A stretch of 41,840 nt of DNA from a virus: UHGV virus genome UHGV-0211239; one strand, written 5' to 3'. Shown piece after piece: positions 18,599 to 41,652 of this stretch. Both the position numbers and the translations under genes were made by a program. The notes beneath the pieces are model-generated. The model worked only from the letters and a program-made list of their open reading frames with translations. It made no database searches and was not told the DNA's origin. Numbering within the stretch: the stretch's first letter is position 1; the number at the start of each line of letters is the position of its first letter.

Positions 18599-18673
18599 GG
18601 TGCTGGTTAACGGACTTGAACCGCTACACATTCGCTTACAAGGCGACTGCTCTACCATTGGAGCTAAACCAGC
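18599..18673 (-). tRNA. tRNA-Thr-like (anticodon UGU)
   Basis: Manual cloverleaf on minus strand: 7/7 acceptor stem, 4-bp D stem, anticodon loop CUUGUAA, T stem with loop UUCAAGU, discriminator A then CC; one non-WC pair at 27-43 and C at position 14. Confidence 0.55.
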
Positions 18674-18678
18674 ATATT

Positions 18679-18753
18679 TGGCGGGACAGCGTGGACTCGA
18701 ACCACGATAAGAAGGTTAACAGCCTTCCGTAATGACCTTTATACGACTGACCC
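18679..18753 (-). tRNA. tRNA-Asn-like (anticodon GUU), possibly degenerate
   Basis: Manual cloverleaf: anticodon stem 5/5 with loop CUGUUAA, T arm CGUGG-UUCGAGU-CCACG, encoded CCA; acceptor stem has one U-U mismatch, D stem 3 bp. Confidence 0.45.
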
Positions 18754-26269: not shown

Positions 26270-26977
26270 ATGGTTCAGAATGAAAAAGTGCGCAAAGAAT
26301 TCGCCCAGCGGCTAGCGCAAGCCTGTAAAGAAGCTGGTCTTGATGAACATGGTAGGGGAATGGCTATAGCCCGTGCCCTTTCTCTTTCGTCCAAAGGCGT
26401 TAGCAAATGGTTTAATGCTGAGTCTTTACCGCGTCAGGAAAAAATGAATGCGCTTGCGAAATTTCTAAACGTTGATGTTGTTTGGCTTCAGCACGGCACT
26501 TCGTTAAATGGAGCGAATGATGAAGATACTCTTTCATTTGTTGGCAAATTAAAAAAAGGGTTAGTGCGCGTGGTTGGTGAGGCAATTCTTGGTGTTGATG
26601 GTGCCATCGAGATGACCGAAGAGCGCGATGGGTGGCTCAAGATTTATAGCGATGATCCAGATGCCTTTGGTCTTCGTGTGAAAGGAGACAGCATGTGGCC
26701 TAGAATAAAATCAGGAGAATATGTACTCATTGAGCCTAACACCAAAGTATTCCCGGGTGATGAGGTGTTTGTCAGAACCGTTGAAGGACACAACATGATC
26801 AAAGTTCTTGGCTATGACAGAGACGGAGAATACCAGTTTACAAGCATCAACCAGGACCATAGGCCAATAACGTTGCCTTATCATCAAGTAGCAAAGGTGG
26901 AGTATGTGGCTGGTATTCTGAAGCAATCTCGCCATCTGGATGACATCGAGGCAAGGGAGTGGCTGAAAAGTTCGTGA
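26270..26977 (+). CDS. CI-like prophage repressor (HTH_XRE + S24 LexA-like peptidase domain)
   Basis: 235 aa; N-terminal HTH (MAIARALSLSSKGVSKWF), C-terminal GDSMWP motif with downstream Lys. Confidence 0.9.
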   Translation: MVQNEKVRKEFAQRLAQACKEAGLDEHGRGMAIARALSLSSKGVSKWFNAESLPRQEKMNALAKFLNVDVVWLQHGTSLNGANDEDTLSFVGKLKKGLVRVVGEAILGVDGAIEMTEERDGWLKIYSDDPDAFGLRVKGDSMWPRIKSGEYVLIEPNTKVFPGDEVFVRTVEGHNMIKVLGYDRDGEYQFTSINQDHRPITLPYHQVAKVEYVAGILKQSRHLDDIEAREWLKSS

Positions 26978-27067: not shown

Positions 27068-27625
27068 TTGGCAAAAATAGATGATTATCAGCCAAGCCAA
27101 GTAGAAGTTGATAAAGTACTTTATTGTAAAAAAATAGTTAACTTTTCTGGCGTTAAATGGAAACAGAAACCAAGTCGCTCTGATATGTGGCTACAAACTC
27201 ATATCATCCCCTTGGATGAGGATTGTATACCTATACAAGGGCTAAAGTTTGAACTGAAATGGAAACCAGATCAGGATTCAGAACCTGATGACCCGATTTC
27301 TTACCCTAAAATAAATATTATTGCTTTCTATCATAACAAGAGGGTTTTCGCGGTAGATACCTATCACTTTGACAAACACACGAATAGTTACAAGGTCGAT
27401 CATCCGAAGTACCAAGATATCATTTACGGTGCTCACTACCATGTATACTATGAAGAAGCTGGATACTATAGTGATAGAATAGCGTTTCCAATCGAAGATG
27501 ACATAAACCCAGATGACCTGGTAGGGTATTGGAATTACTTCTGTAAACATCTGAACATAACTTACTCTGGGAGAATACCTTTACCACTTGAAGATGAGTC
27601 GGGGCAAATGGGGTTTGGAATATGA
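27068..27625 (+). CDS. Hypothetical protein A of candidate two-gene system at rexAB position
   Basis: 185 aa, TTG start with SD agggcgg; AT-rich codon usage; His/Tyr-rich segment HYHVYYEEAGYY; no recognised domain. Confidence 0.55.
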   Translation: MAKIDDYQPSQVEVDKVLYCKKIVNFSGVKWKQKPSRSDMWLQTHIIPLDEDCIPIQGLKFELKWKPDQDSEPDDPISYPKINIIAFYHNKRVFAVDTYHFDKHTNSYKVDHPKYQDIIYGAHYHVYYEEAGYYSDRIAFPIEDDINPDDLVGYWNYFCKHLNITYSGRIPLPLEDESGQMGFGI

Positions 27626-28374
27626 TGTGCTCAACAGTGATCTCACAACTAGGTTTCGAATGCCATCCAATAGGCAAGACCTTGAGAATTATCAGTCCAT
27701 TCACTTACTGTGATGATGGAGAGCATGTCGGTGCCTTTATCCGTGAAGTCAATGGTAGGTATTTAGTTAGTGATAGATGCGATGCCTTAATGAATATGGA
27801 GGCAAGAGGGATCTCGCTTACCAAAAAACGACTTGATGAGATACGACAATTACTGCTTAAAGAAGGCGCAGAGCTCAATGATCGAGGAGAAATCATTGCT
27901 TGGGCAACAGAAAAGGATGTCGGTGCGATTACATCGAACATAATTAGAGCTGGTATACTCGCATCAACTTTGTCGTTAGACTGGTATCAGCCAGTTCAAG
28001 CTGAAAAGTTTGAAAGTATGGTTATTGATTATCTATATCACACAGAGCTTAGAGACGCACTTTCTCTTCGTGAAAACGTATATGGCTTGAGTGGACATCA
28101 AATTACCGTCCCTGTAACAATAAAAACCGACATACCTAAATACGTTTTTACATCAAGCGTGAAACACGGAGGAAGCTGGAATAGTGCTTACTCATTGCTT
28201 GGGAAACTAATTGATCTTAAAGCATCAAGTGAGGAGTATAACAACAGATTTGTTGTTATAGACAGCGAAGCAATTGGTGACCAAATGCAACAACTCTCCT
28301 TACTCTTCCATGAATCAAGCCAAGTTCTACCATTCTCCAAAAGAGAGACTTGGGTTAAGAGACTTGCAGCATAA
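27622..28374 (+). CDS. Hypothetical protein B of candidate two-gene system
   Basis: 250 aa; ATG overlaps stop of gene A (ATGA); AT-rich; followed by a terminator; no recognised domain. Confidence 0.6.
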   Translation: MMCSTVISQLGFECHPIGKTLRIISPFTYCDDGEHVGAFIREVNGRYLVSDRCDALMNMEARGISLTKKRLDEIRQLLLKEGAELNDRGEIIAWATEKDVGAITSNIIRAGILASTLSLDWYQPVQAEKFESMVIDYLYHTELRDALSLRENVYGLSGHQITVPVTIKTDIPKYVFTSSVKHGGSWNSAYSLLGKLIDLKASSEEYNNRFVVIDSEAIGDQMQQLSLLFHESSQVLPFSKRETWVKRLAA

Positions 28375-28379
28375 TACAA

Positions 28380-28405
28380 CCCGGCCTCAGCGCCGGGTTT
28401 TCTTT
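28380..28405 (+). terminator. Intrinsic terminator
   Basis: cccggc-ctcagc-gccggg followed by ttttcttt, six bases after gene B stop. Confidence 0.7.
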
Positions 28406-28569
28406 GCCTCTCGCCCAAAAAAAACACATAACCAATTGTATTTATTGATGTAACTCGCTAAACCATACAGTTCTGATCCCTGCCGCATAACCTTCATCAG
28501 CCACATTTTCAAAAATAAATTTCCTTATATATCAGAATCATACTTCGTAGAGTTAATAAATCACCAAAA

Positions 28570-28615
28570 TTCGTACCAATAGTTCTTGATAATGTCGAAC
28601 TATTGGTTCATTATT
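28570..28615. promoter_or_regulatory. Putative OL/PL
   Basis: Inverted repeat accaatagttc / gaactattggt sharing half-sites (tcgtac, tYgaact) with the OR region; overlaps TTGATA-17-CATTAT. Confidence 0.4.
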
Positions 28616-28683
28616 ATCGTCATCAGCAGGACGCACTACTCACCAGGGCGGTGAATATACAACGATTCGAATATGAATCTACG

Positions 28684-28698
28684 GCGCTGACAAAGCGC
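28684..28698 (+). promoter_or_regulatory. nutL boxB hairpin (P22 type)
   Basis: gcgcTGACAAAgcgc upstream of the N-like gene; identical to the P22 boxB as recalled. Confidence 0.6.
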
Positions 28699-28863
28699 AA
28701 TAACCAAAGTGAACTTTGGGGTGTGGTGAAGGGTTCATGGACGGGAATATGTCGCACGTAAAGCGGCGAGGCCTGCGGGACTATTGCCGAATTGAAGTAG
28801 GCCGAAACAGGTCGAAATGGGTCTCCCACCTACCACACCACCAAAGTTCATCAGGAGGTCTAT

Positions 28864-29247
28864 ATGACACGCAGAACTCAGTTCAAAGGCAATTCACGTT
28901 CTCGTCGTCGTGAGCGTTTAAAGGCAAAGGCATTAGCTAACGGCGTACTGGCCCGCGAAGAAGCAATAAGTTCAGAAGTATTACACCGCCCTACTCTAAG
29001 CAGAGCGCAGATTCAGGCTAAAGGTACTCACGAAACGCCTGAGCGCATAGAAGACGCTAAGCCAATTAAGTTCATTGCACAGGACGTGATCTGGCAACAG
29101 AAAGAATACAGACGCAATCTGGAGCGAGCGGCCATTGTGTACGCGAATGAGTTTGGACATAAGCAACCAGAAACTGGTGTATGTCTTCCAAACGTAGCCA
29201 TTTACGCGGCAGGATACCGGAAATCAAAACAACTGACAGCGAGGTAA
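28864..29247 (+). CDS. N-like transcription antiterminator (P22 gene 24 analogue)
   Basis: 127 aa; N-terminal arginine-rich motif RRTQFKGNSRSRRRERLKAKA; first gene after the PL/nutL region. Confidence 0.7.
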   Translation: MTRRTQFKGNSRSRRRERLKAKALANGVLAREEAISSEVLHRPTLSRAQIQAKGTHETPERIEDAKPIKFIAQDVIWQQKEYRRNLERAAIVYANEFGHKQPETGVCLPNVAIYAAGYRKSKQLTAR

Positions 29248-29250
29248 GTG

Positions 29251-29475
29251 ATGAATCAGACATACATTCCATCATGCTTGAGAAATCTGCCAAAGCAGAA
29301 AGCAAAGCCCCGCAAGCAAGCCATAAAGGACGCTAAGGCAGAGGTTATTGATCAAGCAATACAATTGCTCAGGGAGGAGTTAAGAAGTGGCAAGCTCGAA
29401 GGAATGATGATGCCCTATCAGCGCGGATATCTATCGGCGATTAGTAAGTTGGAAGTATTGAAGAGTGAATTATGA
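29251..29475 (+). CDS. Small early hypothetical protein
   Basis: ATG at 29251 (track start 29248 is GTG); 74 aa, basic. Confidence 0.4.
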   Translation: MNQTYIPSCLRNLPKQKAKPRKQAIKDAKAEVIDQAIQLLREELRSGKLEGMMMPYQRGYLSAISKLEVLKSEL

Positions 29476-29537
29476 ACTATCTGGAATTTCCGGATGGTTC
29501 ATTGTTTTGGCAGCAAACCACTTATTTGAGGTGAGAT

Positions 29538-30008
29538 ATGACAAAATCATGGAGCGTACCTTTTCCTGAATCAGAAACTGAACATGATGGAATGCCTGTT
29601 TTCTGGAGATTCCAAGCGACAGTTGAAGAAGATGGAATCAAAATATTCGCACTTCAATATATAGCTTTTCATCAGACAGAGCATTATGCATGGTTGGTTC
29701 CTGCGCATTGGATTGTTGATTTTAAACCAGCACCAAATCAATGGTTACGGGAATGGAAACAAAGGATAAATAGATATGCAATTAAGAAAGTAGCAAAAAA
29801 TGCAGAAAGATCTTTTGCATTCCCAACGAAGAAACTTGCCATTGAGAGTTTATTGCGCCGGAAGAAATACCATTTAATGAGAATCAAACAAGATTTGGCT
29901 GTTGTATCAACTCTTGTTGATGGGATGAAGAATATTGATACATCAACACCAGATATTGAATATAACTTTGGACACAACCAAGAAACAGAAAATTGGGTAT
30001 TCTACTAG
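29538..30008 (+). CDS. Hypothetical early protein (AT-rich moron at esc/sieB position)
   Basis: 156-aa ORF; no TM segments or recognised motif. Confidence 0.5.
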   Translation: MTKSWSVPFPESETEHDGMPVFWRFQATVEEDGIKIFALQYIAFHQTEHYAWLVPAHWIVDFKPAPNQWLREWKQRINRYAIKKVAKNAERSFAFPTKKLAIESLLRRKKYHLMRIKQDLAVVSTLVDGMKNIDTSTPDIEYNFGHNQETENWVFY

Positions 30009-30151
30009 GACGCATAGTCGACCTTTATTTTTGGCATAAACAACAGAATAAACACTGCACTGTGTATTCATTCCAACGAGTGAATACACGGAGCAATGTC
30101 GCTCTTAACTAAACAGGAGCCGACTTGTTCTGATTATTGGAAATCTTCTTT

Positions 30152-30177
30152 GCCCTCCAGTGTGAGGGCTTTTTTAT
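30152..30177 (+). terminator. Intrinsic terminator within early-left operon (tL-like)
   Basis: gccctc-cagtgt-gagggc followed by tttttt. Confidence 0.6.
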
Positions 30178-30241
30178 ATGCATACCAATAACGCTTCACT
30201 CGAGGCGTTTTCGTTATGCAATCAAATATAAGGAGTTACCC

Positions 30242-30376
30242 ATGATGCACTTTCAGCTCGCGGGTAGCGGCGTCATGTCCGCTTTCTACCCGCACGAATC
30301 TGAATTATCACGCCGAGTTAAACAATTAATCAGAGCAGCAAAGAAACAACTGGAGGCGTTATGCGCAATGAAATAG
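30242..30376 (+). CDS. Small early protein (Kil-like position)
   Basis: 44 aa from ATG with SD aaggag (MMHFQLAGSGVMSAFYPHESELSRRVKQLIRAAKKQLEALCAMK); the track's longer start lies inside the terminator. Confidence 0.35.
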   Translation: MMHFQLAGSGVMSAFYPHESELSRRVKQLIRAAKKQLEALCAMK

Positions 30377-30594
30377 CCATCAATCACCAGATGCTTCGTG
30401 CTGCACAGAACAAAGCAGTAATAGCCAGATTTATTGGTGATTCCAAAATGTGGCTTGAAGCAAATAAAGCGATGAAATCAGCGATCAACACTCCGTGGTA
30501 TCGCAGGAAATGAGTTTTACAGATAACTGGTCAGGCGAAGAATTCATTCGTCAGATGAACAAAATGCTCAATCAGCACAAAGAACAGGAGAAAG

Positions 30595-37250: not shown

Positions 37251-37922
37251 ATGGTGATTGATGCAATGTTAAGCGTTCAGATGACTCCACAAGCAAAAGT
37301 TAGCTTCGAGGAGCAATGTTTTTTTCATGCTTCAGGTCTTGTTGTTGCCCCAATAAATGTTGGAGCATTCTCCTACTTTGGCGCTAATTGTATGCTCGGC
37401 GGCTTTACGATGGGTAGATTTTGTTCAGTTGCTCCAGGAGTAAAAATTGGCCTTGGCGAGCATGAAACTGGGTATTTTTCTACGCATCCTTTTTTCTTTG
37501 GCTCAAAAAATGGTTTTAAAATCCCTGATGGTATAGGAATGCAACGCGACCTCTCTCAACAGAAGCATGGTATACCAAGAATTGGTCATGACGTATGGAT
37601 AGGTGCAAATGCGGTTATCAGGCGAGGTATAACTATTGGTACTGGCGCTGTTATTGCTGCTGGCGCTATTGTCACCAAAAATGTCGAGCCATATTCAATC
37701 GTAGGTGGCGTTTCTGCAAAACACCTAGGGTACAGATTTGAGGAATCAATCATCAAAGAGTTACTGGATAGCCAATGGTGGGAATATGATTTAAGCTCAT
37801 TTATTGGGATTGATACAAGGACACCGACGACTTTTTTAGAGCAGTTTAATGCTGTAAAAGATAAAAAGAAGGCATCTTATAAGAGATTTACAATTCTTCC
37901 ATCCGGTGAAATTGTTGAATAG
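37251..37922 (+). CDS. Hexapeptide-repeat (left-handed beta-helix) acetyltransferase; candidate surface-polysaccharide O-acetylase
   Basis: 223 aa; repeats [31 protein letters not shown]; AT-rich; convergent with tailspike at the P22 seroconversion locus. Confidence 0.75.
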
Positions 37923-37941: not shown

Positions 37942-40308
37942 TTAAATAAACATAAGAATAAACATCAGAAGTTCCTCGTATCTGATACCATACTGATAAC
38001 CAGCAGGTTTAATAATAACCTGCCTTCCTGTGTAATATTCCTCGTCGTACCACTCTCCTGTTTCATTGTTTTTAACACTCCTAATTAATACCTCTGGAGC
38101 ATAAATATCATCCCATTCATCATAACACCAGAACGCATAGTTATTAGGGTCAAGACCGTATTTTCTGAGAATATTACCTACAGTTTGTGCACCAACACCG
38201 AAATGAATCCGAGCGCCATCACTCTTGATCTTTACTGCATCTTTAAATTTAAACCTCCAGATATTTTTCTTTATTTCAAGCGCAGCAAGACGCTCTGATT
38301 CTGTTGTTTTCTCGTCAGCCTCAATACGCAATTTCAGCTCTTCATTCGACGTGTTGATACTGCCAGTACCAGCGTATACCTGTGACCATCGAAATGCTGA
38401 TGTTCCGTTTGAGTTAACATTATCAACAGTTGGTTTTATAAGGCCAGAAAAATGAGTTTCAGGTGATGTATGAAGAAGATATCCGCCAGAATCGTTTTTT
38501 GTGCGTAATTCTATAGAGTCTACAATTATTCCACTGCGACGAATAATGATAGCGTTATTACCTTGTGCACCATTGTCTTTCTGAGTGGATAGTGTGTATC
38601 CGGTACGAGTATCTATCCTCCATCTTTTGGTATCTTCTGATGCTTCCTGATTATAAAGATAAATAGAGTTATCAGTGTAATTATTTTTGCCATCAATATT
38701 TGTAAGTGTAAATTTGTTATTTACTTTGTCATCATTGACCATGAAATTGGCAAGAGTGTAGAGAGGAGATGCAGTATACTGGCTGCAATTAAAACCACGT
38801 GCGTTTTGTATGTTAAGTAATGTTGTGACATTAGCATTAATGCTAATATTGGAAAAGTTTGTCGCCTGATTTGCTCCATGTATTGATGATGTTACTCCTA
38901 TCTGAGCTCCAATATCCAATGTACCAAAACTTACATTAATGAAGTTGTTTGCATCGCCACCATCTATAATTATTCCTTTTTTAGTCGTCGTATAACCTGA
39001 TGCACTGCTAATCTCCAATCCATTAATGGTGCACACTCTTGGTCTGATGAGTCTAATTCCTACCCATTCATTTCCGTGGTCATATCCTCCTCCTGCTCTA
39101 TGTATGGCTAGTCCATTAGCAATCAAAAGAAATCTGTTATCAAGATTAATAGGGTGAAGCTGGCTATTAATGATAACGTTTGTCCATATAGACTCACCAT
39201 ACGCATAGCGATTTGATTCGAACACTCTATCCTGAGCATCATAAACACCGTTTAGGGATCTAGCAACATCGACATTGGTAAGATTGAAATATGTCTTCTG
39301 CTTAATTTCAAAAAAATTGGCAACGTTATGCGTTGTGATATCACTCACACGCATGGATAAAATACCTTCTTCTGGAGCGGTGCGAATGAATCCATCAAGG
39401 AACTGTTCATTATAACTTTTGGCTATCTGATAACATCCAACAGCATCAATGCGTTCGATTGTGAACTGCCAACTATCACCACAGTTAAAAGACCATTCCC
39501 AACCGTACTTCTGTGCGAATTCATCAGAATCAATATTTGCAGTCTCAGAACAGAAAGATAAAAATCTAAATGTTGGTTTTGGCCTTAGATGATTAAGCCC
39601 GACACCTCTTGGGGTATATATGGCATTAGCTCCATTCCCGCCTTTGCTTTTAATTGTAAGGTGACTTAAACCAAATTCAACATCATGCTTAGTTGGTGCA
39701 GCGAAAACAAATCCATCTTTTGGTGATGTGGTATTATCAAACACAATAACTGTTTTACCCTGTCCATCGCCACACATATTCACTGGTGGTATATTAACTG
39801 GTCCAATTAAATTATATGTTCCAGTTGGAATATATAACTTTCCACCATCTCCAAGAGCATTTGCTGCTGCAATAAATGCCACCGTATCATCGTTAACACC
39901 GTCACCTTTCGCCCCATAATGCTGTGGCGTAATTAACAGCATACGGTCAGAAAAAATCTCTTCCCTAAGTTGATCAGGATCGTATTTTAATACATTTGGA
40001 AAATAAAACTGCTGAGTGCCATATGCATCATATACAGCCATAGAATGGCCTTGCACAGTTACGAATTTGGCAATCTGCCCGTTATATACCGGATATCCAG
40101 CAGCGTTAATGATGATTGGTTGCGAAACAGGAACATGAGAGCCGTCTTCGTTCTCTACATAAACCTGAATCTGGTTTTCAGGATTTACCGGGTCAGTATC
40201 AATTTTACCGATATAAATTTTGCCATTGGCTACGGATTTAAAAGAACGCGCCATAGTGAAGAGTTGCGAAGGCATACTCACTACAACATTGGCTGTAATG
40301 TCTGTCAT
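37942..40308 (-). CDS. Tailspike: P22-type head-binding N-domain, pectate-lyase-like beta-helix, C-terminal intramolecular chaperone (S74-like)
   Basis: 788 aa; N-terminal about 110 aa matches P22 gp9 ([11 protein letters not shown]...VLKYDPDQ); [13 protein letters not shown] motif; C-terminal SNEELK...[10 protein letters not shown] resembles self-cleaving chaperone domains. Confidence 0.8.
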
Positions 40309-41365: not shown

Positions 41366-41427
41366 GTCAATATTTCCTAATCCGATTTGTTGATACCGAA
41401 GCCCTGACTGTTACCGCAGTTGGGGCT

Positions 41428-41652
41428 TCAACTTTTCACTTCTTTAAAGTGCCTACCTTCTACAGTTGCTCTGAGATAAAAATTCTTATCTTTACCGTTT
41501 AGTGCTTCCCAAGCATCAACAATGCACTTATTACAGATGTGGACTTCTCGATAACCAATAGCTTTCCTGTCAATATTAGTGAACATAACAGTTTCTTTAT
41601 CTGTCAATGTGGATGCATGACAGAAGTCGCAATCTATATAAGATACCTTCAT
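41428..41652 (-). CDS. Small CxxC...CxxC zinc-ribbon protein between arc and ant
   Basis: 74 aa; Cys at 8, 11, 40, 43; ATG overlaps arc stop; SD gagaggggat. Confidence 0.5.
   Translation of the reverse strand: MKVSYIDCDFCHASTLTDKETVMFTNIDRKAIGYREVHICNKCIVDAWEALNGKDKNFYLRATVEGRHFKEVKS

Follow-up and report, generated by a model that had tools for sequence, protein, structure and literature searches.

ORF156, a widespread uncharacterised gene of the leftward early operon of a lambdoid coliphage and a candidate early accessory effector

What does the short AT-rich gene between N and cIII in the leftward early operon of this phage do? An earlier note placed this gene, here called ORF156, at the position of esc/sieB. 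It suggested a host-takeover, anti-defence, or abortive-infection factor. The window is the whole stretch of DNA that was analysed, 41,840 nucleotides of virus genome UHGV-0211239. It comes from a mosaic P22-like/lambdoid coliphage. The head genes are closest to those of APC_JM3.2, IME10, and the BASEL phages Bas106, Dewey, and Louie. The coordinates of the features discussed here are given in Table 1.

Table 1. Features of the window discussed in the text.
Feature	Position	Strand	Description
Two adjacent tRNA genes	18601-18753	-	Inside the phage
cI-type repressor	26270-26977		
DUF6978-like and DUF1828 genes	27068-28374	+	Overlapping pair, 185 aa and 250 aa
Terminator-like hairpin	28378-28399		
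Block shared with 933W	28380-28870		97.6% identical to the tM/pL/nutL/N-start region of 933W
pL-like promoter	28586-28614	+	933W type
nutL	28632-28698	+	933W type
Antiterminator N	28864-29247	+	H-19B/933W/HK97 type; first gene of the operon; PF25694, E 2.8e-15
orf75	29248-29475	+	PHROG 5305; compared with HK97 and 933W, an insertion precisely between N and ORF156
Weak hairpin	29472-29502		14 pairs, T-rich tail
Shine-Dalgarno of ORF156	29528-29534	+	GAGGTGA; GAGG core ends 6 nt before the ATG
ORF156	29538-30008	+	ATG start, 156 codons, 156 aa; HK97 gp45/933W L0079/PHROG 1636 family
Hairpin (inverted repeat)	30062-30089	+	GTGTATTCA...TGAATACAC; 12-14 bp, near-perfect; conserved with the gene in HK97, 933W, and H-19B
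Octamer	30100-30107	+	CGCTCTTA; between hairpin and terminator
Intrinsic terminator	30152-30175	+	GCCCTCcagtgtGAGGGC + T6; 6-bp stem with 5 GC pairs, 6-nt loop
cIII	30242-30376		Pfam/NCBIfam and PHROG matches
kil	30361-30513		Pfam/NCBIfam and PHROG matches
Acetyltransferase	37251-37922	+	Hexapeptide-repeat type
788-aa ORF	37942-40308	-	Read as tailspike
sar antisense RNA	41367-41433	+	P22 type, Rfam RF00262

The AT-rich frame described in the earlier note is present. Its GC content is 36.3% (GC3, 28%) against 46.2% for the window, and it has a good Shine-Dalgarno site. The dN/dS was 0.09 to 0.13 against the HK97 and 933W copies and 0.14 against the copy in a Rosenbergiella prophage. Between two homologues in prophages of plant pathogens it was 0.07. 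These values, homologues down to about 20% identity, and a full-length match to PHROG 1636 indicate that ORF156 is more than a chance frame. Judged by its pattern of substitution (dN/dS about 0.07 to 0.14), it is a genuine protein-coding gene under purifying selection.

The earlier note had found neither membrane segments nor known motifs, and our scans agree. The highest 19-residue Kyte-Doolittle mean was 0.56, so a membrane segment is not predicted. Pfam and NCBIfam scans gave no matches for ORF156 and nothing real for 75 of its relatives. Among the PADLOC defence profiles, the sole match was to Cas1_II (E 0.012, 13 bits), and it is spurious. The product is predicted to be soluble. Our best guess, which we hold with low confidence, is that it is cytoplasmic.

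ORF156 is an already catalogued, widely distributed, uncharacterised gene. It is the same gene as HK97 gp45 and 933W L0079. The protein is 97.4 to 98.1% identical over 156 aa to HK97 gp45 (NP_037731) and 933W L0079 (NP_049479, ST933Wp19). Full-length relatives with 97 to 98% identity were also found in Phi24B (vb_24B_11c), BP-4795, Min27, Stx2 phage 86, and many Stx1a and Stx2a phages. Residues 1 to 156 match positions 1 to 156 of the PHROG 1636 profile (E 3.5e-110). The same profile is matched by all 75 of the 75 members of the family alignment (A2). The gene was present in 598 of 5,426 complete E. coli genomes (about 11%), with up to four copies per genome. Nucleotide identity across these genomes was 95 to 99%. 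The homologues are annotated as "hypothetical" or "prophage protein" in every source. Literature searches by gene names, locus tags, and accessions retrieved no study of the ORF156/HK97 gp45 protein.

The wider family was retrieved with a profile search of 1.84 billion representative proteins. It contained 87 relatives at E <= 0.001, mostly of 125 to 170 aa. Relatives at 55 to 85% identity were from prophages of Pectobacterium, Brenneria, Rosenbergiella, and Cronobacter and from the BASEL phage Bas81. Those at about 20 to 30% identity were from phages and prophages of Pseudomonas, Vibrio, Pantoea, Salmonella, Marinobacterium, and others. The family HMM did not match N4 gp2 or other N4 early proteins. 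The plasmid search retrieved only 11 records with the gene, all non-mobilizable, and it found no link to mobilizable or conjugative plasmids. No informative domain fusions were found among the relatives. Of the apparent fusions that were rejected, P0090 and P0108 were repetitive false positives, and P0079 had an N-terminal extension only. The gp17 of H-19B was also rejected as a homologue. It is encoded by a separate 103-aa gene downstream of the true homologue, which is unannotated.

ORF156 belongs to the pL (leftward early) operon, downstream of nutL and N. The operon runs from pL/nutL through N, orf75, ORF156, the terminator, cIII, and kil to RecT. The genes after kil are, in order, those for a PHROG 3486 protein, RecT, and Sipho_Gp157, small ORFs, Ead/Ea22, xis, and int. 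The orf75 gene begins with a GTG that directly abuts the stop codon of N. Its cassette was also found in phage phi367, and it is not part of the ORF156 module. The weak hairpin overlaps the end of orf75 and lies between that gene and ORF156. As part of the orf75 insertion, it might attenuate transcription into ORF156.

A consensus scan found no sigma-70-like sites on the + strand from 28614 to 30516. In HK97, the same kind of scan found no promoter-like site from pL to cIII, and no terminator-like site was found from pL to the terminator behind gp45, the stretch from N to gp45 included. With no separate promoter-like or terminator-like sites, ORF156 would be cotranscribed with N on the earliest pL transcript and would be silent in a repressed prophage. 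The motif scans thus suggest production together with N in the first minutes of infection or induction, and none from a repressed prophage.

This early timing, and an operon shared with kil and cIII, would suit a Kil-type factor that kills the host or arrests its growth through early reprogramming or block of the cell. ORF156 resembles neither Kil nor any other known toxic early protein, and nothing specific favours such a role. We consider it very unlikely.

The conserved unit consists of the ORF156 gene and about 120 nt of 3' sequence that holds the hairpin and then the terminator. The earlier note had placed a terminator about 150 bp downstream, and the intrinsic terminator was located 144 nt past the stop codon. 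It is the element annotated as a putative terminator in the HK97 record. Without antitermination by N, the N/ORF156 transcription unit ends there. The 3' block (30057-30180) is conserved at 96 to 99% in HK97, 933W, H-19B, and phi367. It folds much better than shuffled controls (z = -5.5). Insertions are found directly after the terminator, ea10 in 933W and gene 17 in H-19B. The octamer between the hairpin and the terminator has two + strand occurrences in the window. It has the lambda boxA sequence and could be a chance occurrence. An Rfam search of the 3' region found no family. The region was also considered as a prophage anti-sRNA (AgvB, AsxR, or Pas) and rejected, because those RNAs map to the PR' moron site.

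The closest DNA copy of ORF156 was found in E. coli H6 (NZ_CP010170.1, locus L024) at 99.6% identity. It lies behind a different N of 110 aa, with three other hypothetical ORFs before cIII. This neighbourhood shows that movement of the cassette is not tied to the N type. Phage phi367 has ral between N and the homologue. The N-to-cIII intervals of lambda and P22 contain no homologue. From these changing neighbours and the absence in lambda and P22, ORF156 is a mobile, dispensable cassette of the variable N-to-cIII interval. It is a non-essential accessory gene that some related phages carry and others lack.

Wherever the context was examined, the homologues lie among small early genes, the distant ones in temperate and non-lambdoid phages. 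In loci L018 and L019 and in Medea1, the homologue is inside the repressor-to-integrase operon. Other contexts are consistent with a phage-internal DNA-transaction factor, that is, a protein that aids early transcription, recombination, replication, or excision on phage DNA. A Brenneria prophage has the homologue immediately before xis and int, and in locus L021 it is followed directly by alpA and int. The homologues of Bas81 and Salmonella phage NX263 open an operon at a divergent promoter region. That operon also encodes a ParB-like protein and, as annotated in Bas81, a RusA-like resolvase. Genes for RecE, RdgC, RecT, or Erf neighbour the homologues in several phages, and in a Vibrio phage the homologue adjoins a divergent RecE gene. 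The conserved inverted repeat just downstream of ORF156 would also fit such a factor. Lambda and P22, however, perform all these processes without a homologue in their N-to-cIII intervals. No partner gene is conserved across the contexts, and neither is the position relative to int, xis, and the recombinases. The inverted repeat is missing in strain H6, though the gene is kept. A role in transactions on phage DNA is therefore an unlikely reading.

A DNA methyltransferase gene was present within 1 to 2 kb, in the same operon, in 5 of about 11 distant contexts (L012, L018, L019, L021, and L025). Assuming that early operons often contain methyltransferase genes, we judge the proximity unconvincing, and it may be coincidental.

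Neither the ORF156 sequence by itself nor the profile matched anything in the PDB. AlphaFold with 21 close homologues gave a poor model (pLDDT 63). With 75 diverse relatives, the pLDDT was 94.9 and the pTM was 0.81. This model contains a three-stranded twisted beta-sheet (residues 19-30, 33-46, and 50-55) and a fourth strand (83-86). It also contains short helices at 57-61 and 66-74 and a 33-residue helix at 98-130. The C-terminal tail is as confident as the core (pLDDT >= 90).

None of the solved structures resembles the model. Its only fold resemblances are weak ones to small SH3/Tudor/KOW-type barrels (PipX, the UvrD/PcrA C-terminal domain, and the NusG/Spt5 KOW domain). Among predicted viral structures, there were 13 matches at E < 0.001 with TM-scores of 0.44 to 0.78, all to uncharacterised proteins. 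They are from phages of Erwinia, Achromobacter, Delftia, Rhizobium, Sinorhizobium, Cellulophaga, and Tenacibaculum. No characterised protein matches ORF156 by sequence or by fold. As modelled, the fold appears to be phage-restricted and widespread, without a solved representative. Structural relatives in phages of both Proteobacteria and Bacteroidota favour a widely available target.

The predicted pI of ORF156 is 8.8. Residues 61 to 120 are strongly basic, with a pI of 10.3 to 10.8 (10.8 for residues 83 to 120), and both ends are acidic. Conservation was assessed among 63 relatives with less than 40% identity, at around 20%. Position R24 is basic in 94% of them, K87 is basic in 97%, and K109 is a lysine in 84%. 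Further conserved basic positions are K75, K83, K84, and R91/92. E/Q46 is a glutamate in 95%, and T47 is a serine or threonine in 98%. G33 and A101 are invariant small residues. The family contains no conserved catalytic motif or metal-binding pattern. Since it is mainly lysines and arginines that have been kept over large distances, the simplest reading would be that the protein binds a polyanion, most likely nucleic acid.

The explanation that we prefer, and offer tentatively, is an early nucleic-acid-binding accessory protein for counter-defence or host takeover. ORF156 would be made with N at the very start of infection or of the lytic programme. It may bind a polyanion stoichiometrically, most likely DNA or RNA, a step in which our confidence is low. 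The binding would serve counter-defence or host takeover, and the protein would be neither an enzyme nor a membrane exclusion protein. The predicted early expression with N and the accessory status fit this explanation, as does a setting among ral, gene 17, gam/abc2, and recombination genes. Anti-defence or host takeover would be the most reasonable functional class for ORF156, and it is plausible.

Some observations count against parts of this explanation. An acidic protein or a phospholipid head group could be bound by the basic surface just as well. For a counter-defence gene, the conservation is unusually tight across the 598 E. coli genomes (95 to 99% nucleotide identity). The immediate-early timing comes from motif scans, and the hairpin at the end of orf75 might attenuate transcription.

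ORF156 could also act without nucleic acid, as a protein-binding inhibitor that neutralises a host immune or housekeeping protein directly, like Ral, Gam, and Abc2, which belong to the same operon. It shares its accessory interval with ral and P22 gene 17. Its early timing, horizontal mobility, AT-richness, and lack of enzyme motifs would suit an inhibitor. The conserved residues, however, are basic rather than forming a variable interface. The wide range of phage hosts and the slow evolution are atypical for inhibitors of a specific defence. We regard an inhibitor as possible but rather improbable.

The nucleic-acid-binding explanation can be put in a more specific form. ORF156 would then be an immediate-early effector with a widespread, phage-restricted new fold. 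Its binding to nucleic acid would disarm or pre-empt a broad host function by an undescribed mechanism. In this form the claim is a doubtful one.

A large accessory-gene screen (Silas et al., bioRxiv 10.1101/2023.04.06.535777) identified orf184, a gene of the ral region, as a trigger of the gop-beta-cII abortive system. It encodes a different protein, of 107 aa, and was rejected as a copy of ORF156. ORF156 peptide motifs were absent from the 200 accessory genes of that screen, so the family lies outside it.

The gene is carried by 933W, Phi24B, BP-4795, many other Stx1 and Stx2 phages, and HK97. Its product is probably among the first proteins made on induction of these prophages. If it serves counter-defence or takeover, it would influence how Stx phages pass from strain to strain, and the known early phage effectors would gain a new fold. 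For now, ORF156 adds to the many conserved hypothetical genes for which this region is known. Its value is that of a well-defined candidate, with a confident model, a clear deletion target, and available model phages.

The window contains other features of interest. The DUF6978-like and DUF1828 genes lie in the rex slot, with cI on one side and the tM-like terminator on the other. They match the PADLOC candidate defence pair PDC-M24A (E 4.6e-4) and PDC-M24B (E 4.4e-10), and the pair is likely a prophage-expressed defence candidate. The acetyltransferase gene lies between int and the 788-aa ORF. It is taken to be a putative O-antigen-modifying moron. The sar antisense RNA, an element of the P22 immI (ant) region, is matched over its full length (72.7 bits). 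The two tRNA genes scored 59.9 and 55.3 bits with Rfam.

The comparison with known systems begins with SieB and Esc, whose position the earlier note had assigned to ORF156. That assignment holds for the interval and not for the orientation. SieB and Esc are encoded in the same N (gene 24 in P22) to cIII interval in lambda and P22. The lambda and P22 records place them on the other strand from N, with an annotated promoter of their own in P22, whereas ORF156 is co-directional with N and has no promoter-like site upstream. The N-terminal sequences of SieB are visibly hydrophobic by eye (hydropathy was computed for ORF156 alone), whereas ORF156 has no transmembrane segment and is predicted to be soluble. 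BLASTP of ORF156 against lambda and P22 SieB gave a best E of 1.7 over 14 residues. No match below E 1 was found to Esc, Ral, P22 orf78, orf87, and gp17, or lambda Ea10.

The analogy with SieB/Esc thus fails in strand, promoter, membrane segment, and similarity. For this reason, a superinfection-exclusion or abortive-infection protein expressed from the prophage is the least likely of the three roles that the earlier note proposed. We consider it extremely improbable, the shared interval being the point in its favour. The structural relatives also argue against it, as they occur in varied phages, including N4-like lytic ones, in which prophage exclusion would have no role. A weak further point is that the Phi24B lysogen-expression study (PMC3342100), which is non-exhaustive, does not give the coordinates of vb_24B_11c in its text.

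The closest known relatives differ from ORF156 mainly in their surroundings. HK97 gp45, 933W L0079, and Phi24B vb_24B_11c lie directly after N, whereas here orf75 intervenes. They have the same 3' hairpin and terminator as ORF156. Relative to these phages, the window contains about 39 extra nt after the ORF156 stop codon, in addition to the 75-codon orf75 cassette.

Lambdoid morons are reportedly promoter-gene-terminator cassettes (Juhala et al. 2000, cited in PMC4104026). ORF156 resembles them in its AT-rich deviation, its presence or absence among relatives, and its own terminator directly downstream. Morons have their own promoter, whereas the sigma-70 consensus scan detected none for ORF156 here or in HK97, so that it would depend on pL. 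With that dependence, ORF156 is not expected to be expressed from the prophage.

Ral is encoded in the same interval and on the same strand as ORF156, and in phi367 it co-occurs with the homologue. It contains 64 to 66 aa, including Cys, and has no similarity to ORF156. P22 gene 17 and ORF156 are both accessory genes with the same orientation as the N-type antiterminator, and each is the final gene ahead of the terminator in front of c3/cIII. The gp17 of P22 and H-19B is an acidic protein of 103 aa without sequence similarity to ORF156. The two genes are not alternatives to each other, since they lie side by side in H-19B. According to the P22 record, gene 17 lets P22 grow on a Fels-2 lysogen, which places a counter-exclusion function in a slot equivalent to that of ORF156. 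By position, P22 gene 17 is a better analogue of ORF156 than SieB/Esc.
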